A DNA stretch of 38,095 nucleotides from a virus (taxonomy: Duplodnaviria; Heunggongvirae; Uroviricota; Caudoviricetes), in the IMG/VR virus record IMGVR_UViG_2526164613_000026. One strand, 5' to 3'. The notes below the pieces were generated by a model. It saw nothing but the letters and a program-made list of their open reading frames with translations. It searched no databases and was not told the origin of the DNA. Of the stretch, positions 21,781 to 37,620 are shown one piece after another (the stretch's first letter is position 1; each line of letters begins with the position of its first letter). Both the position numbers and the translations under genes were made by a program.

Positions 21781-21847
21781 TCTTCGTGATGAACTGTTTT
21801 CAACAGATATCAGGCTAATCGGCTTTTTGGAATTCCACAACTATTTT

Positions 21848-22189
21848 TTATCTTACCTTGATGCCTGATGCCGTCAGATGTTTACGACAGTCCTGAATAC
21901 CTTCGTTATAACCCGCATCGTAGAAGCTATCCGGCTTTGCCTTCAGCGCAGGAAGCGTAACGCTGGTAGCTCTTCGTTCGGCCAGAACACCTGCCTGAAA
22001 GAGTGTCCACATCAACTGAACTGCTGAATCACAGTAAGTAACATCTTCACTGTACAATTCTCGTTCAATCCTGATGCCAAGTTGAGCCTTCATTGATGCG
22101 CCAATATTACCTTTGACCTGCAACGACAGGTCTGGGTACCTCTGTTCCATGAAGCTTTCAAATCTGTTGCGAACGCTGATCAGAGCCAT
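21848..22189 (-). CDS. Hypothetical protein, 113 aa, between Q and the late/lysis region
   Basis: ATG at 22189 with AAGGGAA 6 nt upstream. Only 31 nt after Q stop. No family recognised. Confidence 0.5.
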   Translation of the reverse strand: MALISVRNRFESFMEQRYPDLSLQVKGNIGASMKAQLGIRIERELYSEDVTYCDSAVQLMWTLFQAGVLAERRATSVTLPALKAKPDSFYDAGYNEGIQDCRKHLTASGIKVR

Positions 22190-22220
22190 CTGGTTCCCTT
22201 ACGTGATTGATTGCTGGATA

Positions 22221-22643
22221 TTATGCCGCCGAGCAGCTCCTACGCAAAGTCCTGATAGCCTGAGGCTTTGACTGAACCGACTGATCCATTTCGAGCACCA
22301 CATCCAGCATGGCTAAGCAACCGTCAATAAATCCCTCTGCCGCCTGAAGCCTCTTCAGAACGTGGGTGTGAGATACGCCGAGCTTCTCACCCATCGCCCG
22401 CACGGGCATGGCCTGGACGTAATGCCACTCAAGGAGCGTGCACAGATACGGATCTTTTTTCTTCAGGCAGCTCATAGCGGAGTTGATGATAAGACCGTCA
22501 TTGTCACTGCATTTCAGCCTTCCAGACTGCGTCGCGGGTAGCAGATTCTTAAACCCGGCTGCAACAGGAGGAAAGTAGACGCTACCACCTTCACTCGCTG
22601 CCCAGCCACCCCAGCGCTCTAAAACCTGTTGAATATTACGCAT
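22221..22643 (-). CDS. Late-gene antiterminator Q (QuuD-like family)
   Basis: 140 aa, ATG at 22643. N-terminus MRNIQQVLERWGGWAA and overall pattern resemble DLP12 QuuD as recalled. Sits immediately upstream of the late region. Confidence 0.75.
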   Translation of the reverse strand: MRNIQQVLERWGGWAASEGGSVYFPPVAAGFKNLLPATQSGRLKCSDNDGLIINSAMSCLKKKDPYLCTLLEWHYVQAMPVRAMGEKLGVSHTHVLKRLQAAEGFIDGCLAMLDVVLEMDQSVQSKPQAIRTLRRSCSAA

Positions 22644-22774
22644 GGCTCTGACCTCTACGTTTTGCTACGAAAAAATTTTCTGAGAACTACGTCTGTTTAT
22701 CCGTGGGTGTGGATAACGCAGTTCCGATTCGCATATTGCATGTATCAACATGCAAAAAGTTGCTAATGCGGAGT

Positions 22775-22962
22775 GGAACCACCTGCCCCCACCTGGAACC
22801 ACCTTTTCCTAACCTTTCCCTCAATCGACTTATATATATATATGGGGTTTCTAGTAGAAAGGCGGTTCCAGTGGTTCCAGTGGTTCCGCCCCGCTTGCCA
22901 CAAGGTCTGCAAGGTGGAACCACCTTCTCTTTTAGGTGGTTCCGCGTGGTTCCAGCGGTTCC
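22775..22962. repeat. Iteron cluster, putative replication origin
   Basis: Nine GGAACC/GGTTCC hexamers counted by hand (consensus about AGGTGGTTCCA): three in one orientation at 22775, 22795, 22916 and six inverted at 22864, 22873, 22882, 22938, 22948, 22957. They flank a (TA)n tract TATATATATATAT at 22831..22843 and overlap the primase-helicase 3' end. Confidence 0.65.
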
Positions 22963-25118
22963 CAAACCTTGCATTTTTTCCCCCCAATTCGCCTTTGGGC
23001 ACGCTTATACCCGCAATTTTGCAAAACATTACTAATTCGCATTTCTTCGCGTTTTCCGATGCGGTCAGGATTTAGCCCAATCGCATCACGCAAAACATCA
23101 CTTGCGCGTAAAAATTCGCAATTTCGCGGAAGTTCATTAGTCATCAGGTCTGGCGTGTCGAGCCATTTCTCTACCGTTTCAAGCCAAGCATCCTTGATGG
23201 TGTACTGTTCATGGACACTCGCTGCCAGTTGTTCAGCCTCACGGAACTGGATACCCCCCAGACGCTGAAACACCTCACGAGCCTCAGCCCAAAGTAAAAG
23301 GAGATCTCTTTTTATCACTTTCACGTCGACTTTCGACACTTCCACGGGGAGCCAGCGACGGTTACCAGTCTTGTCCGCAAGGAATTCGTCCTCATTGGTG
23401 GTACCAACGAACACCAAGCGACGAGGAAACTGGGTGGCGAACTCCCGGTATTTCGGGATCCAGTTTTCGTGAGTACGCGTCACAAACGCTTTGATTGACT
23501 CCAGCTCTTTGGTATTAAGTCCGCGCAGTTCACCAATCTCTGCCACCAGCCGACCACGCATTTTTCGAGCGAGATCATCGTCTTTTTCGGCAAAAGAGAT
23601 TTCAGTAAAAAACGCAGGATCAGGGCTCAGTGCCTCCACTCCGGAAGACTTACCGCAGCCCTGCGGACCAACGAGGATCGGCACCATATCCGCTTTGATG
23701 CCTGGCTCCAGTACTCGCCCCGCCAACGCGGTCCACATGTACATAGACACCGCACGGGTATAAGGCGTGTCGGCTGTACCGAAGTGCGTATGGTAGAAAC
23801 ATTCGATGCGCGGCACGCCATCCCACTCCAGCCCGTTCAGCCAGGTGATCGCTGAATCGAATGGTTGTTCATCGGCTGCAAGTAACACCACATCGCGAAT
23901 AAGTTCACGACCAACAGGTTTAAATCCCCGCTTTTCCATCGTGATGCGCAGGCGCGCATAATCCGCATCGGTGAATGCCCGCCATTGTCCGGATCCTGCA
24001 GGGGCAAACATGATTTCGTCGCGGAACTGGTCAAAGCGAATATCGATGTCCACAAAATCAGGGCGTACTACTGCTTTGGCTGCGTTGCTGATGGTTGCCT
24101 CGATACGCCCCCATTTATCACGCTCGAAAGCAGGCAGCGGTAAAGGTTCCGCCACTTCGGTGCTGGTCAGATCTTCGAAATCGTCGTTGCGGATCCCGAT
24201 GGCATTAAGGAAATCTCCGTCATCACGATGCGCACAACTGGCATGCAGGCATTTAAAATGCCCCTGCTCAAAGCCCGCGGTTCCCGCAGGAAAATAAGCT
24301 GTGCTTGTTGGATCGCCCCCGCTACTGTGGCCGTCTTCAAACGGACAGCGGATATATCGTTCACCATTTGCGCCATCCAGCAGCGTCCAGCCATTGGCAT
24401 CAAGATATTCAGCTGTATCATCCGTCGCGCCGGGCGTGAATGCTGATCGGTCGCGCATCTTCGTGTTGCCCGCTTCGGTGGTTACCGACACAGGGAGTTG
24501 TTCAGCCAGGCGCTGCCACAGCGTTTCAAGCTGCTCACCAGTAATAGCCGGAGGTTCATCCGGCAAACCACCGTCCCATTCAATACGCGCGCCGCTGCTG
24601 TGCGTACCACAGGCAACGAACTGCTGCCCGTTCGCCAGCAACTCGATAATGCCCATATCCCCCGCCAGGCGATGGATACGCTTACGGAAATCACCATCAA
24701 CGGCCAGCAGATACAGACACTTATTACTGTTTGCTCGCCAGCGTCGCGGCGGCAACTCCCCCAGAAGTTGCACAAGCGTTTTGCGAATATCTGCCTGAAT
24801 GTCTTCATCTTCGCTATCGCAGTCCAGCGCCAGCCAGCCATGGCCTGTACGCACGCAGATGCCATAATCCGGTTCATTCGACCAGCGGGCAAAATCATGC
24901 TCAGTAGCAACATACCCGGTCCATTGAGCAATACCGGTGACCTGGCGGTCCCGGTTATAGCGACTTGGCGTCTTACCCAGCGCTTTCAGTTTACTATCAG
25001 GGGATATAGTCGCACCGGGGTTACATACAACTGGGAGAAGATGATCAGTTCTCCCCAATACCAGGTCGAAATGAAACCACTCATCAGGCGTAGCTCCCCA
25101 TGGTTTGCTATCGGACAT
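22932..25118 (-). CDS. Replicative primase-helicase (PrimPol-like N-terminus plus VirE-type P-loop C-terminus, P4 alpha-like architecture)
   Basis: 728 aa, ATG at 25118, 3 nt after Cro-like stop. Walker A ILVGPQGCGKSS and Walker B-like RLVFVGTTNE in the C-terminal half. Last codons are encoded by the iteron repeats. Confidence 0.8.
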   Translation of the reverse strand: MSDSKPWGATPDEWFHFDLVLGRTDHLLPVVCNPGATISPDSKLKALGKTPSRYNRDRQVTGIAQWTGYVATEHDFARWSNEPDYGICVRTGHGWLALDCDSEDEDIQADIRKTLVQLLGELPPRRWRANSNKCLYLLAVDGDFRKRIHRLAGDMGIIELLANGQQFVACGTHSSGARIEWDGGLPDEPPAITGEQLETLWQRLAEQLPVSVTTEAGNTKMRDRSAFTPGATDDTAEYLDANGWTLLDGANGERYIRCPFEDGHSSGGDPTSTAYFPAGTAGFEQGHFKCLHASCAHRDDGDFLNAIGIRNDDFEDLTSTEVAEPLPLPAFERDKWGRIEATISNAAKAVVRPDFVDIDIRFDQFRDEIMFAPAGSGQWRAFTDADYARLRITMEKRGFKPVGRELIRDVVLLAADEQPFDSAITWLNGLEWDGVPRIECFYHTHFGTADTPYTRAVSMYMWTALAGRVLEPGIKADMVPILVGPQGCGKSSGVEALSPDPAFFTEISFAEKDDDLARKMRGRLVAEIGELRGLNTKELESIKAFVTRTHENWIPKYREFATQFPRRLVFVGTTNEDEFLADKTGNRRWLPVEVSKVDVKVIKRDLLLLWAEAREVFQRLGGIQFREAEQLAASVHEQYTIKDAWLETVEKWLDTPDLMTNELPRNCEFLRASDVLRDAIGLNPDRIGKREEMRISNVLQNCGYKRAQRRIGGKKCKVWEPLEPRGTT

Positions 25119-25121
25119 GGG

Positions 25122-25334
25122 TTAAGCCTTTTTATCGTTTTGTGAGCCATACAACAGCCAATTAGGGTCGCAATCCAATGCTATAGACATTTCAAGAAGA
25201 TAACGTGGCCGAGCAATAACACCACTTTCAATTCTGTTTATTGCCTGCTGGCTCACTCCTGTGAGCTCAGCCAACGTAACTTGCGTCATTTTGAGTTCTT
25301 TACGTCGTTCTTTTACTCGGGTCGCTAAGGTCAT
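25122..25334 (-). CDS. Cro-like XRE-family HTH regulator
   Basis: ORF track starts at TTG 25352. ATG at 25334 has GAGGTG 6 nt upstream (70 aa). HTH pattern QVTLAELTGVSQQAINRIESG. Divergent from repressor gene. Confidence 0.7.
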   Translation of the reverse strand: MTLATRVKERRKELKMTQVTLAELTGVSQQAINRIESGVIARPRYLLEMSIALDCDPNWLLYGSQNDKKA

Positions 25335-25454
25335 TGCTTTCACCTCATACAATTTTAGTGGTATTTAGCAACAACAAACGGGGTTTGTCAAATACAACAA
25401 AAATTGTTTTTAATGTGGGTATACACATTAATACAACCCAGAAGGACTAATCCC
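25335..25454. promoter_or_regulatory. Divergent immunity-region promoter/operator interval
   Basis: Perfect -35 TTGACA on the minus strand (plus 25386..25391) directed toward cro. Overlapping inverted repeat ACAAAC-GGGG-TTTGT (about 25371..25386) plus further ACAA/TTGT half-sites. Confidence 0.5.
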
Positions 25455-26078
25455 ATGTCTCTCGCAGCCCGTTTTAAAGCACGTCGTTTGGAATTAGGAA
25501 TGACTCAAGTGGAAGTAGCGAATTCTGCAGGGGTTAGCCAACAATCCATAGAATCCATCGAAAGTGGACGAACCAAAAAGCCACGCAATCTTCTGGATCT
25601 GGCTAAGGCCTTGAAATGTAGCCCAGACTGGCTACTGAACGGTAAAAATATTATGCCTCTCGCGGAGATAAGTACCAGACGCATACCTATATTAAGTTAC
25701 ATTCAGGCAGGAGAGCTTACAGAAGCAAGAGACATAACAGATCTGACAGGGGAATTTGAATATATTTTGGCAGACTCTGACATTCCAGAAACATGCTTCG
25801 CATTACGTATTGATGGCGACAGCATGCAACCAGAGTTTAAAGAAGGAGACATTGTTATCATCGATCCTGATCTATGTCCTGCACCAGGGGAGTTTGTTGT
25901 CGCCAAAAACGACGGTCACGAAGCTACATTTAAAAAATACCGTCCATTAGGAATCGGCATCGACGACTTTGAATTAATCCCCCTAAATCCTGATTACCCT
26001 ATTTTTCGTAGTGCAGATATGAACTTACAGATCATAGGTGTAATGATCGAACACCGTATTTACCGCCGTAAACGTTAG
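25455..26078 (+). CDS. CI-like repressor (N-terminal HTH, C-terminal S24 LexA-like peptidase)
   Basis: ORF track starts at TTG 25404. ATG at 25455 has AAGGA upstream (207 aa). HTH QVEVANSAGVSQQSIESIESG. C-terminal catalytic-type pattern (DGDSM...K) as in lambda CI/LexA. Confidence 0.85.
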   Translation: MSLAARFKARRLELGMTQVEVANSAGVSQQSIESIESGRTKKPRNLLDLAKALKCSPDWLLNGKNIMPLAEISTRRIPILSYIQAGELTEARDITDLTGEFEYILADSDIPETCFALRIDGDSMQPEFKEGDIVIIDPDLCPAPGEFVVAKNDGHEATFKKYRPLGIGIDDFELIPLNPDYPIFRSADMNLQIIGVMIEHRIYRRKR

Positions 26079-26097
26079 TATTCCCACCGTAAATATC

Positions 26098-26117
26098 GGG
26101 AGGCGTAACAGCCTCCC
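26098..26117 (+). terminator. Hairpin after repressor gene (weak terminator)
   Basis: GGGAGGC-GTAACA-GCCTCCC, perfect 7-bp stem 20 nt after cI stop. Trailing U-tract is poor. Confidence 0.4.
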
Positions 26118-26191
26118 TTACCCCATTTGTAAAGTCTTACAAATTAAATTCACTTAAATATCAATAAAGTAGTATTCACATCCCACAAAAT

Positions 26192-26213
26192 ACCACGTTT
26201 GTGGTTTACACAA
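26192..26213. promoter_or_regulatory. Operator-like inverted repeat upstream of the rightward early operon (OL-like position)
   Basis: CCACAAA-N8-TTTGTGG, sharing the ACAAA/TTTGT half-site with the cI-cro intergenic palindrome. Followed by promoter-like TTTACA-17-TATCTT. Confidence 0.35.
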
Positions 26214-26400
26214 TACAACTCAAATTGTATCTTTAGCCACAAGTCGAACGGCGCGACTCTAAACCATGCGTCGGGACCGTGGCGGGACAGGATGTCGGCA
26301 ATACGGGTCAGTAAGTTCCCTTTGGGGTGCGGCGAAGCACTGTCTACTGATACAAGTCGAAGCCGCCGAACCACCAAAGTGAACTGAATGAGGAAACGGC

Positions 26401-26595
26401 GTGAAAACGTATAAACCGCTCAAAGGTGAATGCCCTGCTTGCCAAACACAGCTTCAGACACCAAAGCCAAAACGATACCAAATCAACGAATGTTATGAGC
26501 ACTGCCCTGGATGTGGTGCTTTCCTGCATACCATTGCAACGCACTGGCGTGTCCGCTTCAACCTTGTGGTACCACGTACGCACAATACCAACTGA
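26401..26595 (+). CDS. Small Zn-ribbon protein, 64 aa
   Basis: GTG start with GAGGAA 6 nt upstream. Two Cys pairs (CPAC ... CPGC). First gene after the OL-like promoter. Confidence 0.45.
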   Translation: MKTYKPLKGECPACQTQLQTPKPKRYQINECYEHCPGCGAFLHTIATHWRVRFNLVVPRTHNTN

Positions 26596-26626
26596 ATCAT
26601 CCATGTAATTGCTGTGTGTAGTCTTT

Positions 26627-26654
26627 GCCCGCCGCAAGTGACGGGCTTTTTTAT
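26627..26654 (+). terminator. Intrinsic terminator after the Zn-ribbon gene
   Basis: GC-rich stem (GCCCGCC ... CGGGC) followed by TTTTTTAT. Confidence 0.55.
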
Positions 26655-26711
26655 GTCTGAAAGCGCACTCGCAACAGCGCGCTCCCCGATATGAAAAAAG
26701 GAATACAACCG

Positions 26712-26861
26712 ATGAAACCTGAACACCTCTATCGACTGACGGGGCGCGATGTTCTCCGTTATCGCCGTAAAAACTTCGATTTGATGACCGGTCTGGCCGT
26801 TGCCACTGCGCTCGGTCTGATCATCACTTTCATTCTCCTTGTAGCGAGGACCATAGTATGA
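26712..26861 (+). CDS. Small membrane protein, 49 aa
   Basis: Hand-translated [55 protein letters not shown] 8 nt upstream. TGA overlaps ATG of next gene. Below ORF-track cutoff. Confidence 0.3.
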   Translation: MKPEHLYRLTGRDVLRYRRKNFDLMTGLAVATALGLIITFILLVARTIV

Positions 26862-27760
26862 GTTTAGAAACCAGTCTCGAACTTAATAATCAACTTCTGG
26901 CACAACATAATGCGCTGCTTGAACGTCTTATCCGCACAATGGCATCAGGTATTGTTATGCATCCTGACACGATTTCACGAGTGCAGGAATGTCGGGATAC
27001 AGCAACTGAAACTGAAAATATGTCAGCGGCAATGACACTGGATGATCTGGAGTTCAGCGACGTTATCGCACTGGCTGGTTTCTACCCGGTAGCCACCCCT
27101 ATCACAGAAGACATGCTGCAACGTGCTGTTGCCTACCGTGATGCTGAAGGCGATAAACGAGTAGTTCAGATTGATGCTCTCGACAGCGCGTTGCAGGGCG
27201 TCAAACGAGCCAGGGCGCTGCTTAAACCTGCTCTCCTGGACCTGTCCCGTAACATTCTTAAGTTCTGGGACGACCTGCCAACCATCGGCGAGCGACGTGC
27301 TTTTGCCGAGCAGCTACTTGATGCACCTGCAGATGGGCGTGATGAAGTTAAGCCGAAAAAGGCCAGTAACAAAGATGGAGAACGCACGGGGCCGTTTTAC
27401 GTCAAAAATGTATCCGGCACAGCAACCAGTGAACTCCACACCTTACGCAAGTTGAACGAGATGCTGAAAAAAGGCCATATCGAGATCAACCGTGTTGAGT
27501 ATCTTCAGCTGCAGGAAGAATTTGCACGCAGAGACGCAGCAAATTCCAGCCAGAATAATGACGCCAAAGATGACCATACAATTGATTTCGCGGCACTACG
27601 CAAACAAGCTGAAGGGTTGATCCTCCAGTTAGCAAAAGGGGGTTACCGGGCAGAAGCTATTGCAATTCTGGAAAAACAGGGAGCCAGGAAACTTGGTGAA
27701 GTAACGGATGAAAATCTCGCTGAAGTAATCACCCTGGCTGAAAAAGCACTGGAGGGTTAA
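26858..27760 (+). CDS. Hypothetical protein, 300 aa, first gene of replication/recombination module
   Basis: ATG at 26858, translationally coupled to the downstream nuclease gene. No family recognised. Confidence 0.55.
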
Positions 27761-27762
27761 TC

Positions 27763-29064
27763 ATGCCAGACGTTCATGCACAACTTTCTCCATCATCAGC
27801 GCATCGATGGATGCGCTGCCCAGGAAGTCTGGCGCTGGAGGCCACACAACCGGATAAAGAAACAACTTTTGCAATCGAGGGCACTGCAGCGCACGCGCTT
27901 GCTGAAAAAGTTCTACGAAACAGGCAAAGCCACCCGGAACACTACGCCGGATGCAATGTTTCTATGTTTCTCGGCTCATACCCCCTTCGCGAAAATCCTG
28001 ATAATACATCTGGCCCACAGGTGGATGATGAAATGGTCGAAGCCGTTGGCCGGTATGTTGATACGGTCTGGACTCTTGCACAGAATAATGAACTATTGGT
28101 TGAACAACGTGTTGATTTCTCACATATAACGGGGGTGGAAGAATCTTTCGGAACTGCCGACGGCATAATCATCGCTGGTAACGAATTACAAATCCACGAC
28201 CTGAAATATGGCAAAGGCGTCCGCATTGATGCAGAACAAAATGAGCAACTACAACTGTATGCTCTGGGTGCGCTCGAACAATTCAGCATGCTGTATGACT
28301 TTGAGACTGTAAGATTATTTATTCACCAGCCAAGGCTCAACCACGTTTCAGAATGGTCGTTAACCGTACAGGAACTTCAGTCTTTCGGTGAACGGGCACA
28401 GGAGGCCGCAACCAGTGCGATCCTTGTTCTCAATATTGCTGAATGCGAAGGCATTGAGACACTACCGCTGGAAAACTTCATACCTGGAGAAAAACAGTGC
28501 CGCTTCTGTAAAGCAAAAGCTATTTGCACTGCCCAGAAAATGCAGCATTTACAAACAGCGGCCAGCGATTTTGAAGATCTGACAAAGCCTGTCAGCGAAA
28601 TAATCACCAATGCCAGCGCACGTGTACCTCTGTTAACCATTGAGCAGCTTGCGGAGATCTATAGCCAGGCCGACTTTATTGAATCCTGGCTAAAGGCAGT
28701 ACGAGACCGGGTTCACAATGAACTCAATGCCGGACATCCGGTACCGGGGTTTAAACTGGTAACAGGAAAACAAGGTAACCGGGCCTGGAGTGATGAAGAG
28801 GCAGCACGCGCACTTCTGAAGGACCAGTTCAGGTACAAAACTGAAGAAGTATTCGACTTTAAACTTATTAGCCCCACAAAAGCCGAAAAACTTATCAAAA
28901 AGGCCAGTCCGCGCCGTTGGTCAAAAGTCGAGGCACTGATAACACGAGCTGATGGTAAACCCACCGTCGTTCCCGAGTCAGACCCACGCCCCGCACTCAA
29001 TATCAACCCTATAAATGATTTCGACGACGTATCCGACGATACGCTAACCGCAGACCTCATCTGA
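27763..29064 (+). CDS. PD-(D/E)XK (Cas4/RecB-like) nuclease, DUF2800-type
   Basis: 433 aa. N-terminal [15 protein letters not shown] and C-terminal Cys cluster [10 protein letters not shown] as recalled for this family, which co-occurs with family-A polymerases in phage replication modules. Confidence 0.7.
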
Positions 29065-29079
29065 TTTAAGGAAATCCCC

Positions 29080-29628
29080 ATGAAACTGAAGCTGAACAAT
29101 GTTCGTCTGGCCTTCCCGTCTCTGTTTGAAGCTAAAACTGTAAACGGCGAAGGCGATCCACGTTTCTCCGCAGTATTTTTAATGTCACCCAAACACCCAC
29201 AACTGGAAGAAATCCGTAAAGCTATGAAGCAGGTAGCGAAGGAAAAATGGGGAGAGAAGTGGGAGCCCATTTATAACCAGCTGGAGAAAAAACTCAATCT
29301 GTGCCTGCATGATGGTGATGAAAAAGCAGAGTATGAAGGCTTTCCCAGTAATTTCTTCCTGAATGCTGCTAACAAAGCGCGCCCAGCTGTTCTTGATCGC
29401 GATCGTTCGCCACTTATTCAGGCTGACGGACGTCCCTATGCAGGGTGCTATGTAAACGCCGTTATCGATATCTGGGCACAGGACAATAATTTCGGTAAAC
29501 GCATTAATGCCTCACTCGGCGGAGTCCAGTTCCTGCGAGACGGCGATGCATTCGCTGGCGGCGGAGTGGCAAGCGCTGACGATTTCGACGATATCAGCGA
29601 AGGTGCTGATGCTGAAGCACTAATTTAA
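29080..29628 (+). CDS. DUF2815-type protein (SSB-like, replication module)
   Basis: 182 aa, ATG with AAGGAA upstream. N-terminal MKLKLNNVRLAFPSLFE pattern. Conserved partner of the DUF2800 nuclease and PolA. Confidence 0.65.
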   Translation: MKLKLNNVRLAFPSLFEAKTVNGEGDPRFSAVFLMSPKHPQLEEIRKAMKQVAKEKWGEKWEPIYNQLEKKLNLCLHDGDEKAEYEGFPSNFFLNAANKARPAVLDRDRSPLIQADGRPYAGCYVNAVIDIWAQDNNFGKRINASLGGVQFLRDGDAFAGGGVASADDFDDISEGADAEALI

Positions 29629-29643
29629 CCCTACTTCATAGAC

Positions 29644-29662
29644 GCCCGGTTAAACACCGGGC
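29644..29662. terminator. Perfect hairpin between convergent genes (possible bidirectional terminator)
   Basis: GCCCGGT-TAAAC-ACCGGGC, 7-bp stem, no strong U-tract on either strand. Confidence 0.4.
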
Positions 29663-29680
29663 TACTGATTAGGCGTATAA

Positions 29681-30061
29681 TCACTCAGGAATCTTAATCT
29701 TTCTCAATTCTTTATTTAGTTCACAGATCTTTTTCTTAGACGGGAAAGTATCATACATCCAAAAACCAACAGTCTCTAAAACTATTATCATAACCATATA
29801 CACAAGATAATTTAAAAGGCCTTCATTTTGCCCTATGGAAATAATGCAGATAATAGAAAAAAGGGTAAACAGCACAAAACACAGAAAGGAAAACAGACGA
29901 CTAATAATAAATAAAAAACCTGAAAAATCAACATTAATAAAAAACACTCCGTTATCTTTCTCTATATAATTCTGAAGCTTAATCAACTGATTTATATACT
30001 GTCTTTTTTCTAATCTATTGCAAATGTAAATAACATCTCTTCGGTTATAAGAGGATTGCAA
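29681..30061 (-). CDS. Accessory membrane protein ORF, 126 aa from TTG (or C-terminal part of a longer gene interrupted by TAG)
   Basis: AT-rich, antisense to replication module. Two long hydrophobic segments. Starts at TTG without a Shine-Dalgarno. In frame with the ORF upstream across a single TAG. Confidence 0.45.
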   Translation of the reverse strand: MQSSYNRRDVIYICNRLEKRQYINQLIKLQNYIEKDNGVFFINVDFSGFLFIISRLFSFLCFVLFTLFSIICIISIGQNEGLLNYLVYMVMIIVLETVGFWMYDTFPSKKKICELNKELRKIKIPE

Positions 30062-30121
30062 TTTCAGCGCATCACGAATAATTTTATCATTTATTCTTTT
30101 TTCTATGGCTTTCTTATCCTC

Positions 30122-30310
30122 CTAATCCAGATAACGTTCATACTTAATTAAATATAAAATTAACTTCTTGACATATTTAGGCTCTTTATACTTATAATTA
30201 AAAATGATCTTTCTTATCCAGACTCCCATAACAATCAAACATGAAAAAATATATCCAGCTATTTTCTCCAGATGCTCTGTATGGTCAATCAAGTATTGGA
30301 TCATATGCAT
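30122..30310 (-). CDS. Small accessory membrane protein, 62 aa (or N-terminal part of interrupted gene)
   Basis: ATG at 30310, one hydrophobic segment (IAGYIFSCLIVMGVWI). Stop TAG at 30122..30124, followed in frame by 20 sense codons and then the 126-aa ORF. Confidence 0.4.
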   Translation of the reverse strand: MHMIQYLIDHTEHLEKIAGYIFSCLIVMGVWIRKIIFNYKYKEPKYVKKLILYLIKYERYLD

Positions 30311-30356
30311 AATTAATCTTTTAATCAGTTAATAGAATAAAAACCAAGGTAAACAC

Positions 30357-32420
30357 ATGTCCAATATACTATGGGGCGACCTGGAAACCTATTGCGAAAT
30401 CCCTATTACGAACGGTACCCATGCGTATGCCGAAGGCGTTGAAGTGATGCTTTTCGCATGGGCTATCAACGACGGGCCAGTAAACGTGTGGGATATCACT
30501 GCCGGTGGTGGTATTCCACACGGCTTATACGAAGCAATCGCAGCCCCTGAAACCCTGCTTTATTTCCATAACTCTCACTTCGACCGCACCGTTCTGCGTT
30601 ATGCAATGCCGCGACTGGCACCGCCAGTCGAACGTTGGCGCGACACGATGGTGCAGGCGCTGGCGCACGGTCTCCCGGGGTCTCTGGGGGAACTCTGCGA
30701 AATACTAGGCGTCCCGCAAGACAAAGCGAAGAACAAAGAAGGTAAAGCGCTGATCCAGCTGTTCTGTAAGCCACGCCCGAAAAACAGCAAACTGCGCCGT
30801 GCCACCAGCAAAACCCACCCGGAAGAATGGCGGCGCTTTGTTGCTTACGCCGGACTGGATATCGAGGCAATGCGCGAAGTCTATAAACGTCTGCCGAAGT
30901 GGAATTATCAGGGGACAGAGCTGGCGCTCTGGCATCGTGATCAGCAGATCAACGACCGGGGCGTCTGCATGGACATGCAACTCGCGCGCGCTGCGATCGA
31001 AGCGGTAGACCAGGAGCAAAAGCGCCTAGCAAAGCGTACACAGGAAATGACTGATGGCGAAGTGCAGGCAGCCACACAACGAGACGCGTTGATTAAGCAC
31101 ATTGTTGAATCCTACGGTGTGGAGCTACCAGACATGCAACGCAGTACTCTGGAACGTCGTATTGCCGACCCCCATTTACCATCTGCCGTGAAAGAACTGC
31201 TGGCTATCCGCCTGCAAGCCAGTACTACCAGCACCAGTAAATACAAGGCACTGATGAAAGGCGTAAGCCACGACGGGCGCTTACGCGGTACGCTACAGTT
31301 CTGCGGGGCGTCACGTACCGGTCGTTGGGCCGGACGGCTATTCCAGCCCCAGAACCTTCCCCGCCCTTCACTAAAACAGGAACAAATAGACGAAGGCATC
31401 GAAGCACTGAAAGCCGGATGTGCAGACCTGCTGTTTGACAATATCATGGAACTAACCAGTTCAGCGTTACGTGGCTGCATTATCGCGCCAACAGGCAAAA
31501 AACTGGTGGTAAGTGACTTGTCGAATATTGAAGGCCGTATGCTGGCATGGCTGGCGGGAGAAGAATGGAAACTGAATGCATTCAGAGAGTACGACGCCGG
31601 AACGGGTCCAGACTTATATAAACTGGCGTATGCAAAAGCTTTCGATATTGCACCAGATGATGTTGATAAACACATGCGTCAGATCGGTAAAGTCATGGAA
31701 CTCGGTCTGGGTTATGGAGGTGGTGTATCGGCTTTCATCACTTTTGCTCTGGTTTACGGTCTAGATCTCGACGAGCTGGCGAACGCCGCACTGCCAAACA
31801 TTCCCCGCGATGTTATCCGCGAGGCGAAAAGCTGGTACAACGAATCGGTTAAACATAAGTCGACCTTTGGCCTGTCCGAGCGTGTATTCATCGCATGTGA
31901 CTCGCTCAAGCGCCTGTGGCGCAGGGCGCACCCGGCGACCTGCGATTTCTGGTACGAGCTGGAGCGCACTGTCCGCACAGCAATCGCCACACCGCAAAAA
32001 ACATTGTATTGCGGCTATCTTAAAATCCGACGTGATGGCGCGTGGCTGCGCATACAGCTGCCATCTGGACGCGCTGTATGCTACCCGTCTCCGATTATCG
32101 AAAAAGGGAATATCACCTATATGGGTGTTAACTCTTATTCGCGTAAATGGCAACGACTCAAAACCTACGGCGGAAAGCTGGTAGAGAACGTCACCCAGGC
32201 GGCCGCCCGCGACGTTCTGGCCGGAAACATGCCGCTTATCGAAGATGCCGGTTACAGCATTGTGCTGACGGTACACGACGAGGTGATCACCGAAGCACCT
32301 AACACAGAAGATTTCAACGATAAAGCGCTTTCCGCGCTTCTCTCCACTAACCCCGAATGGGCGCCCGATATCCCACTGAACGCTGGCGGTTTTGAAGCGT
32401 ACCACTACCGTAAGGACTGA
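30357..32420 (+). CDS. DNA polymerase I family (family A) with N-terminal 3'-5' exonuclease-like domain
   Basis: 687 aa, ATG with AAGG upstream. Polymerase motifs seen directly: [15 protein letters not shown] (motif A-like), [16 protein letters not shown] (motif B-like), LTVHDEVI (motif C). Confidence 0.9.
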
Positions 32421-32505
32421 TCCCAGCTCACAAATCAGATACATGACATCATTGAAGATATATGTATCATATAGCTATCCTTAACAGATTGTTTTTGGTG
32501 CTTTA

Positions 32506-33015
32506 ATGGAAAATACAGATGTCTGGCTATCAAGGATAGGTACTTTTGTTACCATAATTGGTGCTATGTGTTCACTATGGGGGTGGAAAAAGTCGCGGGA
32601 TGCCGCCACAGAAGCTCAAAAGGCTTTAGCTACGGTCAATTATCAACGTAGTATAAGGGACGCAGGCAACCTTCATGGAAAGTTATCAACCGCCATAAAA
32701 TCTCTAAGAGCAATTGGTCCTGGTTCGAATGAGGAAAATGTTCGAGGCATAAGTTTAGAACCAATAATTTCGGAAATAGAGGATTTCATCGATTTATTTG
32801 CAGCCCAAGCAATAAAACCTAACAATAAAGTAAAATTGAGCATAGACTCAGAAAATTTTTGTGCTGAAATAAGGGAAAATATTTCTGAACTTTCAGATGC
32901 AAAAACTCCTGCGGAAAAGTTAAGAACAGGTAGAGTTTTGCATGCAAAAATATTGGCTATTCAACCTCACATAGATCTACTCGTTGATGATTTAACGTTT
33001 AACACTCAAGGATAA
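32506..33015 (+). CDS. Accessory membrane-anchored protein, 169 aa, unknown function
   Basis: AT-rich. N-terminal hydrophobic anchor (IGTFVTIIGAMCSLWGW). Upstream inverted repeat GATACAT-N17-ATGTATC at 32438..32468. Confidence 0.5.
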   Translation: MENTDVWLSRIGTFVTIIGAMCSLWGWKKSRDAATEAQKALATVNYQRSIRDAGNLHGKLSTAIKSLRAIGPGSNEENVRGISLEPIISEIEDFIDLFAAQAIKPNNKVKLSIDSENFCAEIRENISELSDAKTPAEKLRTGRVLHAKILAIQPHIDLLVDDLTFNTQG

Positions 33016-33020
33016 AAAAC

Positions 33021-33571
33021 ATGCAACTTTCAGATGGCGAAAAACTAATTCTAATGATGCTGTGTGACCTGTACGATAAAAACGAGATTGAAGGCGAAAT
33101 CGATCACACATTTGTCCGTGATGCTATATTCGAAAACCAAACATGGGCACTCCCTTGGAAATTTAGTGGTATTCCATTTAAAAACACCGAAACTCCACGT
33201 GTTGTAAAAAAAGTTCTAGACATCCTAGATATGTGGAGAGTTATTGAATATAGCTACAGTGAACTTACAGAAGAAGAAAAAAGAAGTTAAAAGAAAATGT
33301 TGAGTTATTTGGAAAAAAACCAATATTCAAAGGATTCGATGGAAATAACGAAACTGAGTATCTTGCAGCCGCTGATTTCGTCATCAATAAACTGGATAGA
33401 TTTGAAGAATTCAAATTAAGAGATCTTAATTCTCACATGCCTTCGCTGGCATCATACGAACGCATGATGCATGTATTCAATCCATTATTTCATGAGAATT
33501 TTGGCGAGCCATTGACACTAGAACAACTAACCTTAGTTCTCCGTGAAAAAATTCATCCCAGCCGTCGCTAA
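33021..33571 (+). pseudogene. YfbU-family (UPF0304) protein gene interrupted by a 1-nt frameshift in an A6 run
   Basis: Frame 0 (89 aa, ATG 33021, AGGA upstream) stops at TAA 33288..33290. The -1 frame is open from 33263 to TAA 33569..33571 with no start before codon 47 of the continuation. Both halves align with E. coli YfbU as recalled. Adding one A to the run at 33277..33282 would give a single ~183-aa ORF. Confidence 0.5.
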
Positions 33572-33580
33572 AGATTCCCA

Positions 33581-33600
33581 GCCCTCAAACTAGAGGGCTA
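33581..33600 (+). other. Perfect hairpin at 3' boundary of the accessory cassette
   Basis: AGCCCTC-AAACTA-GAGGGCT, 7-bp stem, immediately before the VRR-NUC ribosome-binding site. Confidence 0.35.
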
Positions 33601-33613
33601 AAGGAAACCTCAT

Positions 33614-33883
33614 ATGATATATGAACGTGAAAACCTAATCGAGAAGCATCTCGTCGCCGAAGTGAAAAAGGCTGGTGGGGTCGCCTTTAAGTTCATATCA
33701 CCTAGTCGCCGCTCGGTACCAGATCGCATTGTTCTGCTACCCGGCGGCCGTCTCGTTTTCGTTGAATGTAAATCTCCCGGCAAGCCACCACGGCCTGACC
33801 AGTTGCGCGAGCATGAACGTCTGCGAAAGCTGGGCTTTACCGTGGTAGTACTGGATAGCAAAAATTTAGAGGGGATATTGTGA
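33614..33883 (+). CDS. VRR-NUC domain nuclease
   Basis: 89 aa, ATG with AAGGAAA upstream. PD-(D/E)XK-type D...E.K core (PDRIVLLPGGRLVFVECKSPG). Confidence 0.7.
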   Translation: MIYERENLIEKHLVAEVKKAGGVAFKFISPSRRSVPDRIVLLPGGRLVFVECKSPGKPPRPDQLREHERLRKLGFTVVVLDSKNLEGIL

Positions 33884-33888
33884 GACAA

Positions 33889-34599
33889 TCATTCTGAGCG
33901 ACTTTTCTTGAGCTTAGAAGCTTTTAAAAAACATACTTTTAGTTGTTGTGTTTCTTTTATGCTTACAGGAATTAATTTCCCCTCAATTCCTTCGACACTC
34001 ATAAATTCAGAGCTATTTTTTTTACAGTTCCCCAAGACAAATTTTCCGTTATAGCTTTCGATAATATAAGCATTATATTTTTTAGAATAAAAAAGGGGCT
34101 CATCTGATAAGTATGCCCATGCCCACCCAAGGACTGAAGGAAGCATTGCTATGGATATAAAAAGCATAACCCCATGAGTTTTGTTTTTTATTCTAAATTC
34201 ATTCCTAATAAAAACAGATACTGCCCTGACACTGATAGGGCTAATAAATCCCAATAGTATTGCTTGGGTAGCCACATCCCTTATGGATTTTTCATAAAGG
34301 TATGAGCTACCGCCATATAAATACATTGTCCAGTATGAAAGCAAAGAGGCCAAAATGAAGAAAAATAAATACACCCACCATGGAATATTCTTCTCTTCAG
34401 TATCAATATGCAGCAAAGCGACTAAGGTGCACAAAAGTCCTAATGCAATAACAGAAAATTTAACTATTTCCTCAATCCCAATAGAAATAAAACTTACAGG
34501 GAATCCATAAAATGAGCTGTACCCTTTGTAAAAAGAAAAAGCCATAAAATAAAGGGCGGCCAAGAGAACCGTTGTAATTGATAAATCTTTTACATTCAT
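33889..34599 (-). CDS. Accessory polytopic membrane protein, 236 aa, unknown function
   Basis: ORF track starts at GTG 34614; ATG at 34599 (MNVKDL). About five hydrophobic helices then a soluble Lys-rich C-terminal domain. AT-rich, antisense, convergent with VRR-NUC (5-nt gap) and divergent from the SNF2 gene (38-nt gap). Confidence 0.55.
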   Translation of the reverse strand: MNVKDLSITTVLLAALYFMAFSFYKGYSSFYGFPVSFISIGIEEIVKFSVIALGLLCTLVALLHIDTEEKNIPWWVYLFFFILASLLSYWTMYLYGGSSYLYEKSIRDVATQAILLGFISPISVRAVSVFIRNEFRIKNKTHGVMLFISIAMLPSVLGWAWAYLSDEPLFYSKKYNAYIIESYNGKFVLGNCKKNSSEFMSVEGIEGKLIPVSIKETQQLKVCFLKASKLKKSRSE

Positions 34600-34637
34600 G
34601 ATGTTCAAGAGCACCTTTCTAATCAGGGATTTTCTTC

Positions 34638-36029
34638 ATGATAACTTTTAAACCACGTCCCTACCAAGATCTCATCATCAATCATCAAATCGAGACCCTG
34701 CGCGGCAACATCTGGGCAGGGATGGGGATGGGTAAAACCGTAGCGACACTCACCACGCTGGAAGATCTTTTCATGGCTGGAGCAGAAACACGCCCCGCGC
34801 TGGTCCTCGCGCCGCTACGCGTTGCAGCAAGCACTTGGCCTGATGAAGCTGTTAAATGGGGGCATCTGCGTAATATTGAGGTACAGCCGATCATCGGTAA
34901 CGCCAAAGCGCGCTCTACAGCGCTGGCGAACAGCAACGCGAGCGTGTTCACAATCAACTACGATAACCTTGTCTGGCTGGTTGAAGAATTGGGAGAACGA
35001 TGGCCGTTCGGTACTGTCATTCCAGATGAAAGCACCCGGCTAAAATCCTTCCGGCTGCGAGGTGGTGGTAAGCGCGCGGCGGCGCTGGGCAAAGTGGCGC
35101 ACAAGTATGTCCGGCGCTGGATAAATCTCACCGGTACGCCAGCACCGAACGGCCTGGTAGATTTGTGGGGACAATCGTGGTTTGTGGACCAGGGGCAACG
35201 TCTCGGGCGCACTTACGGTGCGTTTACCTCACGCTGGTTCAAATCGATACAGTTTCCGGGGCAGAGCTGGACCAAACTGGAGCCTTTTGCTCACTCACAG
35301 GGTGAAATACAGCGAGCGTTAGCCGATGTGACCCTCTCGCTGGATGCAGCCGACTGGTTCGATATCAAAGACCCCATCCATAACGTAATCCGCGTGGATA
35401 TGCCGCCGAAGGCCCGTCAGCAGTATCGTGAAATGGAAAAGGAAATGTTCCTCGAGCTGAATGGCGAAGGCATCGAAGCACCGAACGCCGCGGCAAAGAC
35501 ACTGAAGTGTCTGCAAATCGCCAGCGGCGCAGTATACACAGATGACACCGGAAGTTGGTCAGAACTGCATGACACCAAACTACAGGCGCTGGACAGCATA
35601 CTGACCGAAGCAGCTGGCGCACCTGTGCTGGTTGCTTATCACTGGAAACACGATCTTGAACGCTTGCTTAAAGCATTTCCTCGCGGTCGTCACCTCGACC
35701 AGGATCCACAGACACTACGTGACTGGAATTCCGGAAAGATTCCTGTTCTCTTTGCACACCCAGCCAGCGCGGGCCACGGTCTGAACATGCAGGACGGCGG
35801 AAACATACTGGTATTTTTCTCACATTGGTGGGACCTGGAGCAGTATCAGCAAATTATTGAACGTATCGGCCCAACCAGACAGATACAGGCCGGACACAAT
35901 CGTCCGGTATTTATTCACCACATTATTGCTGCCGACACTATGGACGAAATGGTGATGGAGCGGCGCAACTCAAAACGAACAGTGCAGGACATCCTGCTCG
36001 ATGCCATGAAAAAGAGAGGTATAGCATGA
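34638..36029 (+). CDS. SNF2/DEAD-like helicase
   Basis: 463 aa. Walker A GMGMGKT, DEAD-like box IPDESTRL, C-terminal helicase domain. Confidence 0.85.
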   Translation: MITFKPRPYQDLIINHQIETLRGNIWAGMGMGKTVATLTTLEDLFMAGAETRPALVLAPLRVAASTWPDEAVKWGHLRNIEVQPIIGNAKARSTALANSNASVFTINYDNLVWLVEELGERWPFGTVIPDESTRLKSFRLRGGGKRAAALGKVAHKYVRRWINLTGTPAPNGLVDLWGQSWFVDQGQRLGRTYGAFTSRWFKSIQFPGQSWTKLEPFAHSQGEIQRALADVTLSLDAADWFDIKDPIHNVIRVDMPPKARQQYREMEKEMFLELNGEGIEAPNAAAKTLKCLQIASGAVYTDDTGSWSELHDTKLQALDSILTEAAGAPVLVAYHWKHDLERLLKAFPRGRHLDQDPQTLRDWNSGKIPVLFAHPASAGHGLNMQDGGNILVFFSHWWDLEQYQQIIERIGPTRQIQAGHNRPVFIHHIIAADTMDEMVMERRNSKRTVQDILLDAMKKRGIA

Positions 36030-36226
36030 GCGAGAAACCCGACGATTTACTCACCCCGGATGAAGTATGCCAAAAGTTAGGTATTACACAGAAAACGCTA
36101 TGTGAGTGGAATATTAAGCATCGTCATCGGGCTATCCTGGCACCAATTCGTTTCAGTGCAAAAGTAGTTCGTTATGAGCGCCGAAATGTCGACGCTTTTA
36201 TTCAAAAATGTCGCAGCCAGTATTAA
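36026..36226 (+). CDS. AlpA/Xis-like excisionase or small HTH regulator
   Basis: 66 aa, ATG overlaps helicase stop. Pattern LLTPDEVCQKLGITQKTLCEW is typical of AlpA-family HTH proteins. Converges on the integrase gene. Confidence 0.65.
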   Translation: MSEKPDDLLTPDEVCQKLGITQKTLCEWNIKHRHRAILAPIRFSAKVVRYERRNVDAFIQKCRSQY

Positions 36227-37620
36227 CCTCGCCGCCGTAGCAATGCCACCTGCGCAAGTATGCTCCGCTCGTGAGCCTCGAAAGCTTCGCGCTTCAACGC
36301 AATCTCTTCCTGTAAAATCTCATCAGAAAAGTCGTAATGTTCTGCCATCGGGTCATCTGACTTGCTGGAGTGGTGAAGGCAAAGGAGGCTGATTTCCCTT
36401 CGGTCTGAGCGGGAATAGCCTCTTTCCTTCATCAAGGCAATAACATTGCTCTTAAGGAATTTACGGCACATCGTATTAAATGCACCGTCTTTCCCTTTAA
36501 CAGTTCCATCATGTTTTATTCCTTTTACAGCCCCGTCCGGGCTGTATGTTTTCACCAGCTTATCCAGTGATCGTTTTGAAAATGGCTGCATTGGATCACG
36601 TGGCTGCAAAAATACATAATCCCTGTTGCACTCAGGAACTGAATCACGCCAGGCTTTCTGCTCGTCGATAATCCGCCGGATCTCAGGCGTTATCGGCAGG
36701 CGGAAAGCCTTTTGTGTTTTCATAGCCCCTCGCATGCCGATAACCCCTTCCGGATAAACAATTTCACCAGCCTCCTCGTGAACGTAGTCCCAGCGCAGGT
36801 TATGGACATTAATCGGACGAACACCAGTGATGATCATGAAGCGAACAGCATTCTTCTGGTGTACAGAGGTGCAGGCAGCAACATTGAGCCAGAGTCGGGC
36901 GATTGATTCAATATCGGTAAAAAGCCGTGTGGGGGTAGGTTTCTGTACGCGGGAGGAAACATAATCATCTGGCAGACTGGCGGCAACATTGCGGCCGTTG
37001 CAAAGAGTAGGTGCGCAGAACTTCCAGAACCGACGGAGCTCGGCAAACAACTCCAGGGCGTTATTGTTCGAGCGAGTGGCGATCCACTCGTCCAGCACTT
37101 CCACCAGCCGACTGTATGTTACGTCGCTGAACACCTCGCGCTCGCCGAACGTTGATTTAATCCGGTCGATACGCACCCCATAGGTTGTGAAACTGTCCGG
37201 GCTCAGCTTCTGACGGGCTACTTTGGCTTTGAGGTCATCCCGGTACATTTCCAGCGCTGCATGTACGGACTCTGCCCGCAGTCCACCGTCAGCCATACCT
37301 AGTGCTTTTTCGCGCGCCAGCTGGATAGCGAGCTCCGGCCACTCGCCGAGCTTTTTACCTTTGAGGCCCATCTTTTTTGGAAACTCGGCGTAAAATGTAA
37401 CCTTACCGGCTTTGCTGAAATCGATACGGAGATAGTTCTCTTTTTCGTATTTGGAACGGCGAGCCACGCCGGAAGCAGCGAGGATGATTTTGGCGGCAGC
37501 AACACAGATTTTCATGTGTGCGCTGGTATAGGGGGGTTTACAGGCGTCCCATTTTTCAGAAGCGGCTAAAACATCGTCATTATTGGGGCTATCCGGATTA
37601 TGTGTTACAGTGCGCGGCAT
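36223..37620 (-). CDS. int: Tyrosine integrase
   Basis: ORF track starts at TTG 37626; ATG at 37620 has AAGGA 7 nt upstream (465 aa). Recombinase-like motifs (MIITGVRP, C-terminal LCLHHSSK...EHYDF). Terminal position next to a host gene. Confidence 0.8.
   Translation of the reverse strand: MPRTVTHNPDSPNNDDVLAASEKWDACKPPYTSAHMKICVAAAKIILAASGVARRSKYEKENYLRIDFSKAGKVTFYAEFPKKMGLKGKKLGEWPELAIQLAREKALGMADGGLRAESVHAALEMYRDDLKAKVARQKLSPDSFTTYGVRIDRIKSTFGEREVFSDVTYSRLVEVLDEWIATRSNNNALELFAELRRFWKFCAPTLCNGRNVAASLPDDYVSSRVQKPTPTRLFTDIESIARLWLNVAACTSVHQKNAVRFMIITGVRPINVHNLRWDYVHEEAGEIVYPEGVIGMRGAMKTQKAFRLPITPEIRRIIDEQKAWRDSVPECNRDYVFLQPRDPMQPFSKRSLDKLVKTYSPDGAVKGIKHDGTVKGKDGAFNTMCRKFLKSNVIALMKERGYSRSDRREISLLCLHHSSKSDDPMAEHYDFSDEILQEEIALKREAFEAHERSILAQVALLRRRG

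Follow-up and report, generated by a model that had tools for sequence, protein, structure and literature searches.

We have analyzed a stretch of 38,095 nucleotides of a tailed phage (Caudoviricetes; IMG/VR record IMGVR_UViG_2526164613_000026), called the window below, in which the early genes are arranged in two divergent operons around a lambdoid-type immunity switch. Leftward run a cro-type gene and a primase-helicase gene with a putative iteron origin behind it, and rightward, after the cI-type gene, run the genes of a family A DNA polymerase (PolA), two nucleases, a protein binding single-stranded DNA (SSB) and a SNF2 helicase. A preliminary description of this DNA had seen in it two separate replication systems on opposite arms of the immunity region. 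Having compared it with about 150 related loci, we read the region, with good confidence, as one phage replisome whose two halves are split by the cI/cro switch. The features concerned are the following.

22775–22962, no strand assigned: putative replication origin with nine iterons G[T/C]GGTTCC in both orientations (repeat count and comparison with relatives)
22826–22842, no strand assigned: AT-rich stretch TTATATATATATATATG between two iteron groups, presumed DNA-unwinding element (sequence and relatives)
22932–25118, minus strand: initiator/primase-helicase, 728 amino acids (aa) (Pfam, PDB sequence match, AlphaFold2 (AF2) model, Foldseek)
25122–25352, minus strand: cro-type helix-turn-helix (HTH) repressor, first gene of the leftward early operon (Pfam)
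25404–26078, plus strand: cI-type repressor, HTH plus S24 self-cleaving peptidase (Pfam)
26858–27760, plus strand: conserved 300-aa protein (p300), first large gene of the polymerase operon
27763–29064, plus strand: DUF2800 PD-(D/E)XK exonuclease, a resection nuclease of the RecB/AdnA-like kind, its C-terminal tail acidic (PF10926, 369 bits)
29080–29628, plus strand: T7 gp2.5-type SSB/annealing protein, DUF2815, of the Enc34 ORF6 family, its C-terminal tail likewise acidic (PF10991, 147.5 bits; PMC5686142; PMC8093625)
30357–32420, plus strand: PolA (DNA_pol_A, PF00476, 52.8 bits)
33614–33883, plus strand: VRR-NUC nuclease, 89 aa (19.9 bits, below the Pfam cut-off of 23.8)
34638–36029, plus strand: SNF2-family helicase (superfamily 2), last gene of the replication set (Pfam)

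The gene content given in the preliminary description was borne out on both sides: a PrimPol/VirE primase-helicase with an adjacent iteron origin on the left (by Pfam and the nine iterons), the polymerase, PD-(D/E)XK nuclease, SSB-like protein, VRR-NUC nuclease and SNF2 helicase on the right, and a divergent layout around cI/cro. It is also true, as it had said, that this is more replication machinery than classical lambdoid phages carry. The separateness of the two arms is another matter. In the Pfam scan, which covered the open reading frames (ORFs) of positions 20500–38095, primase, initiator and replicative helicase were all absent from the right arm, as was a dedicated polymerase from the left one, Prim-Pol capacity aside. 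The primase-helicase gene lies 2.6 kb upstream of the DUF2800 gene, on the opposite strand. Our search of the polymerase arm for a second iteron or tandem-repeat cluster gave only short, low-score repeats, and thus no sign of a second origin. It has been reported that a replicative helicase gene is always present in viruses with a DNA polymerase of their own, and a primase gene in 98% of them (PMC4889955).

The two halves are also found together in other phages. Our close relatives were 80 viral contigs with SSBs 91–99% identical to that of the window, plus the phage vB_EcoM-606R2 and the Yersinia phage YeP4. A primase-helicase of 714–754 aa occupied the same divergent slot in 68 of the 70 evaluable loci, and the remaining two are derivatives with a deletion that has brought virion genes up against the polymerase operon. 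The distant sample consisted of 80 loci from species-level genomes of Proteobacteria, Firmicutes, Bacteroidota, Saccharibacteria and other phyla, retrieved with a PolA alignment (32–89% identity), the ORFs of which were searched with a query panel drawn from six phages: primase-helicases, exonucleases, SSBs, VRR-NUC and SNF2 proteins. A primase-helicase was found within 10 kb in 58 of the 63 informative loci with a PolA homologue. In 23 of these it was divergent and upstream as in the window, with an S24 repressor gene between the halves in 12, and in the other 35 it was colinear, the order being exonuclease, SSB, PolA, primase-helicase, VRR-NUC, SNF2. The complete set (primase-helicase, exonuclease, SSB, VRR-NUC and SNF2) was present in 43 of the 49 distant loci of at least 20 kb. 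Phage records counted by genus gave, for PolA and primase-helicase respectively, 105/105 in Bacteroides, 24/24 in Paenibacillus and 84/87 in Staphylococcus. Complementary contents, co-occurrence at both distances and a shared operon in 35 of the 58 distant cases speak against the notion of two separate systems. They come close to the outcome, both modules carried by related phages as a fixed unit, that the preliminary description had named as refuting its reading. Parts of this set have been described before, as a "duf2800-gp2.5-polA module" (PMC8093625) and in the replication module of Enc34, which lists primase, polymerase, VRR-NUC and helicase (PMC5686142). As a whole, the gene set reads as a known and widespread phage replication module, a T7-like replisome.

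The initiator has an AEP Prim-Pol domain at about residues 1–215, a VapE-type helicase at about 330–640 and a winged helix at about 645–721. The Prim-Pol domain (PF09250) scored 41.4 bits, passing the Pfam cut-off, when residues 1–333 were scanned alone, and the C-terminal VapE domain (PF05272) scored 203.6 bits. Residues D99, D101 and H173 and, in Walker A, G487, K490 and S491 were invariant across 36 homologues; the catalytic DxD and a conserved His being in place, the N-terminal domain is predicted to be an AEP Prim-Pol primase. By phmmer, residues 393–657 matched PDB 7PDS, the complex of SaPI1 Rep (SaPI, Staphylococcus aureus pathogenicity island) with double-stranded DNA, at an E value of 1.5e-33. 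The AF2 model, built from the 36 homologues, had a mean predicted local distance difference test (pLDDT) score of 69, and Foldseek aligned it to the same structure over about 457 columns (E 1.7e-18, probability 1.00), the N-terminal domain matching the prim-pol of pRN1 ORF904 (1rni, E 5e-5) and NrS-1 (6a9w). At the C-terminus the model has helices at 645–653, 672–678 and 689–701 followed by a beta-hairpin at 704–721, i.e., a winged helix. No loader-like gene was seen in the leftward early operon, which has three genes.

The motif G[T/C]GGTTCC occurs nine times in 22775–22962 and only two exact copies are found in the remaining 38 kb. Read in the orientation of the gene, two direct and one inverted iteron are followed by three direct ones, the AT run and two inverted ones; six copies are thus on the gene side of the AT run and two inverted (plus one) beyond it. 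The first three (two direct, one inverted) overlap the last ten codons and the stop codon of the primase gene. The AT run is kept at the same position in relatives that carry other iterons, and the same origin architecture, with other iteron sequences, was found behind every primase-slot allele in the relatives. The SaPI ori, directly 3' of rep, consists of six to twelve short iterons with an AT-rich centre and opposed iterons on either side (PMC9371898). The window origin has the same traits: a downstream position, an AT centre and at least two opposed iterons on each side.

On the right arm, PolA carries the polymerase motifs A (DLSNIE), B (31677–31718) and C (HDE), and an N-terminal 3'-5' exonuclease motif, D8-x-E10. 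Its residues D387, S389, E392, R441, K445, H640, D641 and E642 were invariant in six diverse homologues, and a polymerase with a proofreading domain is predicted. PolA homologues were found in 1650 phage records. Motif B puts a Leu at the position of E. coli Pol I residue 762, and the Leu762 class of PolA has been reported as typical of temperate phages, with RecB-like and SNF2 genes as neighbours (PMC6302109). The 89-aa VRR-NUC protein has the D...ExK motif and homologues in all relatives. The DUF2800 protein gave no match to PDB sequences; its homologue in Bas14 has been characterised as an AdnA/RecB-like nuclease (bioRxiv 10.64898/2026.07.14.737667). Its gene is directly upstream of the DUF2815 gene, with a gap of 15 nt. 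The structure of Enc34 ORF6, a member of the family of the window SSB, has the gp2.5 fold (PMC5686142), and no classical SSB (PF00436) was matched by Pfam among the ORFs of 20500–38095; that modules of this kind have no E. coli-type ssb gene nearby has been noted before (PMC8093625). In the Jersey-like Salmonella virus VSt10 (L085, 12257–14722) we found an insert with Hint and LAGLIDADG domains (an intein) in the SNF2 helicase, and the PolA genes of Jersey-like phages (matches H51–H57) are annotated as intein-containing.

Besides, the C-termini of the DUF2800 protein (29011–29061) and the SSB (29575–29625) are similar acidic tails with a (D/E)DF(D/E) motif, and these tails mirror each other by lineage (the window; L002, L083–L086 and L087–L166). 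The SSB tail of the window is DDFDDISEGADAEALI, paired with a like DUF2800 tail. In the Chi-like phage TS13 the DUF2800 protein ends in AWDDEDDDEV and the SSB in DAWDEDEDWEDEV, and in Staphylococcus phage 3A the tails are AEDDFDKL and AEDDFDEL..., respectively. Over 76 loci the tail similarity was higher within the same locus (23.8) than across loci (19.4), with a permutation p of about 1e-4 that is not corrected for phylogeny. In T7, the tails of gp2.5 and gp4 dock on gp5. The mirrored tails suggest a shared docking site for nuclease and SSB, by analogy one on the polymerase or on the primase-helicase, in which case the DUF2800 protein would be a tethered component of the replisome and not a free recombination enzyme.

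The initiator is far more variable than the arm with which it is paired. We found four alleles in the primase slot of the close relatives:

Prim-Pol plus VapE, 728 aa: 50 loci, among them those of the window and YeP4
Prim-Pol plus DUF5906, 753 aa: 12 loci
Second VapE type joined to a DUF5906-type N-terminus, 739 aa: 3 loci
Unrelated N-terminus plus AAA_25, 714 aa: 1 locus

Differing alleles adjoin polymerase arms that are 92–100% identical, and they also reassort with the cI/cro alleles, as in L003, where the primase is that of the window at 99% and the cI only 27% identical. Nearly identical PolA arms are thus accompanied by helicases of four types and by at least 12 different iteron specificities. 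Since a primase-helicase is in the slot nearly throughout while the alleles vary, the function is kept and the allele freely exchanged; the initiator/origin cassette is the exchangeable part, swapped independently of the polymerase arm at the allele level. The preliminary description had left it between co-variation and independent exchange of the two modules, and each applies at its own level: the primase-helicase function co-occurs with the polymerase arm, and independent exchange stands for the initiator alleles. The 739-aa allele (L037, L038 and L042) is a mosaic in which the first ~310 residues are nearly unchanged from the DUF5906-type allele (in comparison with 606R2 and the window), and the remainder is the second VapE-type helicase, which has iterons of its own, TACTCAACC. 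Recombination therefore occurs in the linker between primase and helicase.

In each allele examined, the iteron sequence changes along with the protein. Within the 728-aa type most of the divergence falls within the last 40 residues, where the iterons track the second strand of the wing as modeled:

Wing motif GKKCKVW: iteron GGAACCAC
Wing motif GKMTRIF: iteron CTGTACCAAC
Wing motif GKQQR[VI]F: iteron TAGACAACC
Wing motifs GKVQRVW and GKVLKVW: iteron GTAACCA
Wing motif GKLMKVW: iteron GGTAACA
Wing motif GKQIRVW: iteron ACCACCT
Wing motif GKKMRIF: iteron TGGGACA

The pairing of GKQQR[VI]F with TAGACAACC is common to the enterobacterial contigs and YeP4, the primase of which is 73% identical overall to its counterpart in the window. 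The DUF5906-type initiators gave three further wing-iteron pairs, and over about 12 specificities the hairpin residues covary with the iteron sequence. From this covariation and the predicted fold, we propose that the winged helix binds the iterons. A few wing residues would then set the iteron specificity, in a readable and swappable code. Beyond the known module we thus put forward two readings, a wing-based code of replicon specificity and a replisome-tethered DUF2800 nuclease, both of them tentatively and as somewhat less probable than not. It is a possibility that this prophage family keeps a large repertoire of orthogonal replicon specificities, domain-level mosaics included, beside one near-identical polymerase arm. 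Such a code, if true, might have been selected for keeping origins from cross-talk with those of relatives, be they co-resident or superinfecting, or from hijacking by satellites.

Taken as one replisome, the region would work as follows. The left operon (cro, primase-helicase, ori and Q) would supply an initiator in a single polypeptide, the winged helix of which would read the iterons flanking the AT-rich stretch behind its own gene. The initiator would then melt the AT run, load itself as a hexamer and prime, after which PolA and the SSB would take over. The right operon, after cI, would provide elongation and processing by PolA, SSB, the resection exonuclease, the VRR-NUC branch nuclease and the SNF2 translocase. 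Initiator and origin would make up a specificity cassette swapped by recombination, and the polymerase arm a conserved backbone with three cargo slots. Loss of the repressor would switch both halves on together.

The switch itself is of the lambdoid type, with divergent cI (HTH plus S24) and cro (HTH) genes and a Q antiterminator before the late genes. The stop codon of cro is 3 nt from the start codon of the primase gene, and the true start of cI is probably the ATG at 25455. The putative control sites are these:

25347–25409, no strand assigned: two operator-like half-palindromes of the ATACAA-N6-TTGTAT type between cro and cI
26205–26233, plus strand: promoter-like site TTTACA-17-TATCTT, candidate pL-like promoter/operator of the polymerase arm

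A perfect palindrome, ATACAACTCAAATTGTAT (26213–26230), overlaps the promoter-like site, 135 bp after cI. The only matches to ATACAA-N6-TTGTAT in the window are the two in the cro/cI spacer and one on this post-cI site. In other immunity types a 10–12-mer of the cro/cI spacer recurs 100–125 bp after cI, at a consistent position, which lends weak support. A single repressor may control both arms, to judge from these sites. The pL-like promoter is followed, ahead of the polymerase operon, by a 64-aa zinc-ribbon ORF with CxxC...CxxC (26401–26595; weak zf matches) and, 3' of it, a GCCCG-N10-CGGGC hairpin with a run of six T (26627–26652), found by eye. The ORF could be an early regulator and the hairpin an attenuation point.

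Several points weigh against a single replisome. The model of the initiator is of moderate confidence, with pLDDT values of 66–84 in the winged helix. The operator motif was defined from the very sites that were counted, and its 3 matches against 1.4 expected are not significant. In five of the 63 distant loci, no primase-helicase could be recognised within 10 kb. Of these, L115 has no intact PolA reading frame. Another, L103 from Cupriavidus sp. 2SB, has in the divergent primase slot a 923-aa ORF (1401–4172) that matched neither Pfam nor the primase-helicase panel, with a complete exonuclease-SSB-PolA-VRR-NUC-SNF2 set downstream, and may encode an unrecognised type of initiator. Moreover, the initiator has been swapped for unrelated helicase types beside near-identical PolA arms, which argues against tight allele-specific contacts between the halves. 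The physical coupling of the replisome proteins is only presumed, and so is an essential role of PolA or its neighbours in replication from this origin. By analogy with its SaPI Rep/ori homologues, which use host enzymes, the left arm could work alone.

This last point leads to the alternative that the primase-helicase and its ori are a self-sufficient theta replicon recruiting the host Pol III in the manner of SaPI Rep and P4 alpha, and the PolA arm mainly a recombination and repair module. The modes of replication would be divided: Pol III would serve the first rounds, and the PolA arm, in the place of lambda exo/bet, would drive late recombination-dependent replication, the formation of concatemers or the filling of gaps. 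SaPI Rep/ori needs indeed no polymerase of its own (PMC9371898), and VapE homologues are found in small satellites without PolA, such as the Streptococcus satellite Javan610 of 7.9 kb. DUF2815 has been classed as an annealing protein, with duf2800 as its partner nuclease (PMC8093625). That nuclease is of the RecB/AdnA-like resection kind, the polymerase arm sits between cI and xis/int like the recombination genes of lambda, and initiator alleles are swapped freely against the same arm. However, a PolA set almost never occurs without a primase-helicase nearby, and so near-obligate a pairing speaks against full independence, though it is compatible with this division of labour. In Firmicutes the primase-helicase is actually embedded in the operon of the PolA set. 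The polymerase has a proofreading domain, and virulent phages of the Chi-like and Jersey-like groups have no polymerase other than one of its clade; the viral rule, too, runs in one direction, a polymerase implying helicase and primase. Taken together, we consider this alternative unlikely.

Still far less probable are two independent and redundant systems, the second of them gained in addition to the first and each able to replicate the phage, although the gene groups do lie in different operons on opposite strands and initiator alleles and PolA arms do reassort. The right arm is without an initiator and without a visible second iteron cluster, the contents of the arms are complementary and not duplicated, and the pairing is conserved across phyla and virion types. 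Base composition gives the same answer. The GC content (GC3, at third codon positions, in brackets) was 0.529 (0.530) in the left arm, 0.516 (0.515) in the core of the right arm, 0.528 (0.573) in the structural genes and 0.339 (0.309) in the cassette genes described below. Codon usage correlated at 0.82–0.83 among left arm, right-arm core and structural genes (left against right 0.83), and that of the cassettes at only about 0.3 with the other groups. With GC content and codon usage alike, a separate origin of the arms by composition was rejected; the comparison proposed in the preliminary description does not set them apart.

The single-replisome reading leaves the current understanding of phage replication unchanged. 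What it changes is the annotation of prophages of this type, where one replication module should be recorded for the two arms, polymerase and primase/origin, despite the immunity genes between them. Matched pairs of initiator and origin on a constant background would be useful for studying how winged helices read iterons and for orthogonal replicons.

The preliminary description had also placed three inserted accessory cassettes in the polymerase module, and these were confirmed by their GC content (0.34 against 0.52 in the core) and by the variability of the slots:

29629–30356, minus strand: variable slot 1, two small genes (29681–30061 and 30122–30310), GC 0.28–0.29
32421–33613, plus strand: variable slot 2, genes 32506–33015 and 33021–33290, GC 0.36–0.38
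33884–34637, minus strand: variable slot 3, 241-aa predicted membrane protein (33889–34614), GC 0.34

Among the relatives, the slots compare as follows:

SSB-PolA: 21 distinct contents in 77 loci, 87–2559 bp
PolA-VRR-NUC: 25 distinct contents in 73 loci, 218–1610 bp
VRR-NUC-SNF2: 31 distinct contents in 73 loci, 8–2199 bp

At the lower ends of these ranges (87, 218 and 8 bp) the slots are nearly empty. The slot 2 content of the window was unique among 73 relatives and that of slot 3 was shared only with L026. Other junctions are fixed, at about 5 bp for p300 and DUF2800 and about 18 bp for DUF2800 and SSB (75 relatives). The three cassettes are hypervariable cargo slots, a hotspot with unrelated contents and near-empty states. 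None of the five cassette proteins of the window had a significant Pfam or PADLOC match (slot 2 gave a weak YfbU only), and they are therefore not called defence genes. By annotation, the matched region of the relatives carries TIR-like, SIR2 and ATP-binding proteins, and phage 606R2 has a TIR-like gene between PolA and the nuclease gene. The three well-delimited slots could be mined for accessory or defence genes carried by phages.

The p300 gene, the stop codon of which is 2 nt from the start of DUF2800, was present in all close relatives. It had no Pfam or PADLOC match and 588 homologues, all unnamed, and its AF2 model is all-helical (pLDDT 65), with no PDB fold match at an E value below 0.9.

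The window is 100% identical to a prophage of E. coli O55:H7 strain DEC5B, and its early region was matched in 161 of 5426 complete E. coli genomes, in every one of them on the chromosome. Its other genes are:

149–21422, minus strand: virion and lysis genes
22221–22643, minus strand: Q antiterminator (PF06530, Phage_antitermQ, 143 bits; Pfam)
36026–36226: xis-like HTH gene, after the SNF2 gene
36223–37626, minus strand: integrase gene

The integrase gene, adjoining yfhL, is the end of the prophage. The virion module is of the contractile-tail type, with baseplate J and tail-fibre genes, and relatives are named vB_EcoM. The record of vB_EcoM-606R2 (ON470579.1), described as a complete genome, opens with host genes (L001, 1–2254: tRNA adenosine deaminase, phosphatidylglycerophosphatase C and YfhH) and runs no further than the SNF2 gene, the integrase gene being absent. 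With a host flank and no integrase it looks like the assembly of a prophage region and not like a packaged genome.

The closest known systems are the early regions of the Burkholderia phage BcepC6B and of YeP4, which have the same order and orientation: primase-helicase and cro-like gene leftward, and cI, DUF2800, DUF2815, PolA, nuclease, SNF2/DEAD helicase, HTH and integrase genes rightward. In this group PolA is 57–75% identical to that of the window, and the annotation of BcepC6B cites homologues in the Bordetella phage BPP-1 for most of these genes. The early-gene order common to APSE, Xfas53, BcepC6B, BPP-1 and YeP4 has been described in work on APSE, where YeP4 and Xfas53 are listed as Podoviridae and BcepC6B and BPP-1 are called podoviruses (PMC8579659). 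The late genes of YeP4 differ from the contractile-tail module of the window, and BcepC6B differs in having a primase-helicase of the D5_N/AEP type and not VapE, and a methyltransferase and RusA in the operon. In TS13 the primase is divergent from the PolA set as in the window, and VSt10 has a colinear version of the gene set. The same six-gene set is found in Staphylococcus phage 3A, the Triavirus/PVL phages of Staphylococcus, streptococcal prophages and many other prophages of Firmicutes. There all the genes share a strand, PolA and VRR-NUC have the primase-helicase between them, and identities to the proteins of the window are only about 30–35%.

Taken alone, the leftward arm would be an initiator/origin cassette, its closest likeness being SaPI1 Rep with the ori of that island, to judge from sequence and predicted fold. 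The helicase body is homologous, and the N-terminal primase fusion is as in PriRep5 of SaPI5 (PDB 7OLA). The ori lies directly downstream, with its 6–12 short opposed iterons around an AT-rich centre, and a C-terminal winged helix would be the reader, as in the islands (PMC9371898). The satellites, however, use host or helper polymerases, whereas the window cassette belongs to a full phage that encodes PolA, SSB and nucleases; besides, the iterons are of 8–10 bp here and of 5–6 bp in SaPIs, and the first three here lie in coding sequence.

The replisome as a whole has its counterparts in T7, PolA in gp5, the fused primase-helicase in gp4 and the gp2.5-fold SSB with its acidic tail in gp2.5, and the resection exonuclease and the branch nuclease stand in for gp6 and gp3 as analogues, not as homologues. 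The primase here is an AEP and not a DnaG/Toprim enzyme, and the helicase is of the VapE type, kin to SaPI Rep and NrS-1, and not a DnaB-like superfamily 4 helicase as in gp4 (PMC4889955). The phage is temperate, has an additional SNF2 helicase and starts from an iteron origin instead of the promoters of T7 RNA polymerase.

The layout is like that of lambda: divergent early operons from cI/cro, the initiator and iteron origin in the cro operon upstream of Q, and an exonuclease/annealase pair, xis and int on the cI side. In lambdoid O/ori as well, the specificity of initiator for iterons varies between relatives. There are however no O or P homologues here, and the origin lies behind the initiator gene, overlapping its last codons, whereas the ori of lambda is in the middle of O. 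Lambda recruits DnaB, primase and Pol III from its host, while the phage of the window brings its own primase, helicase and polymerase.

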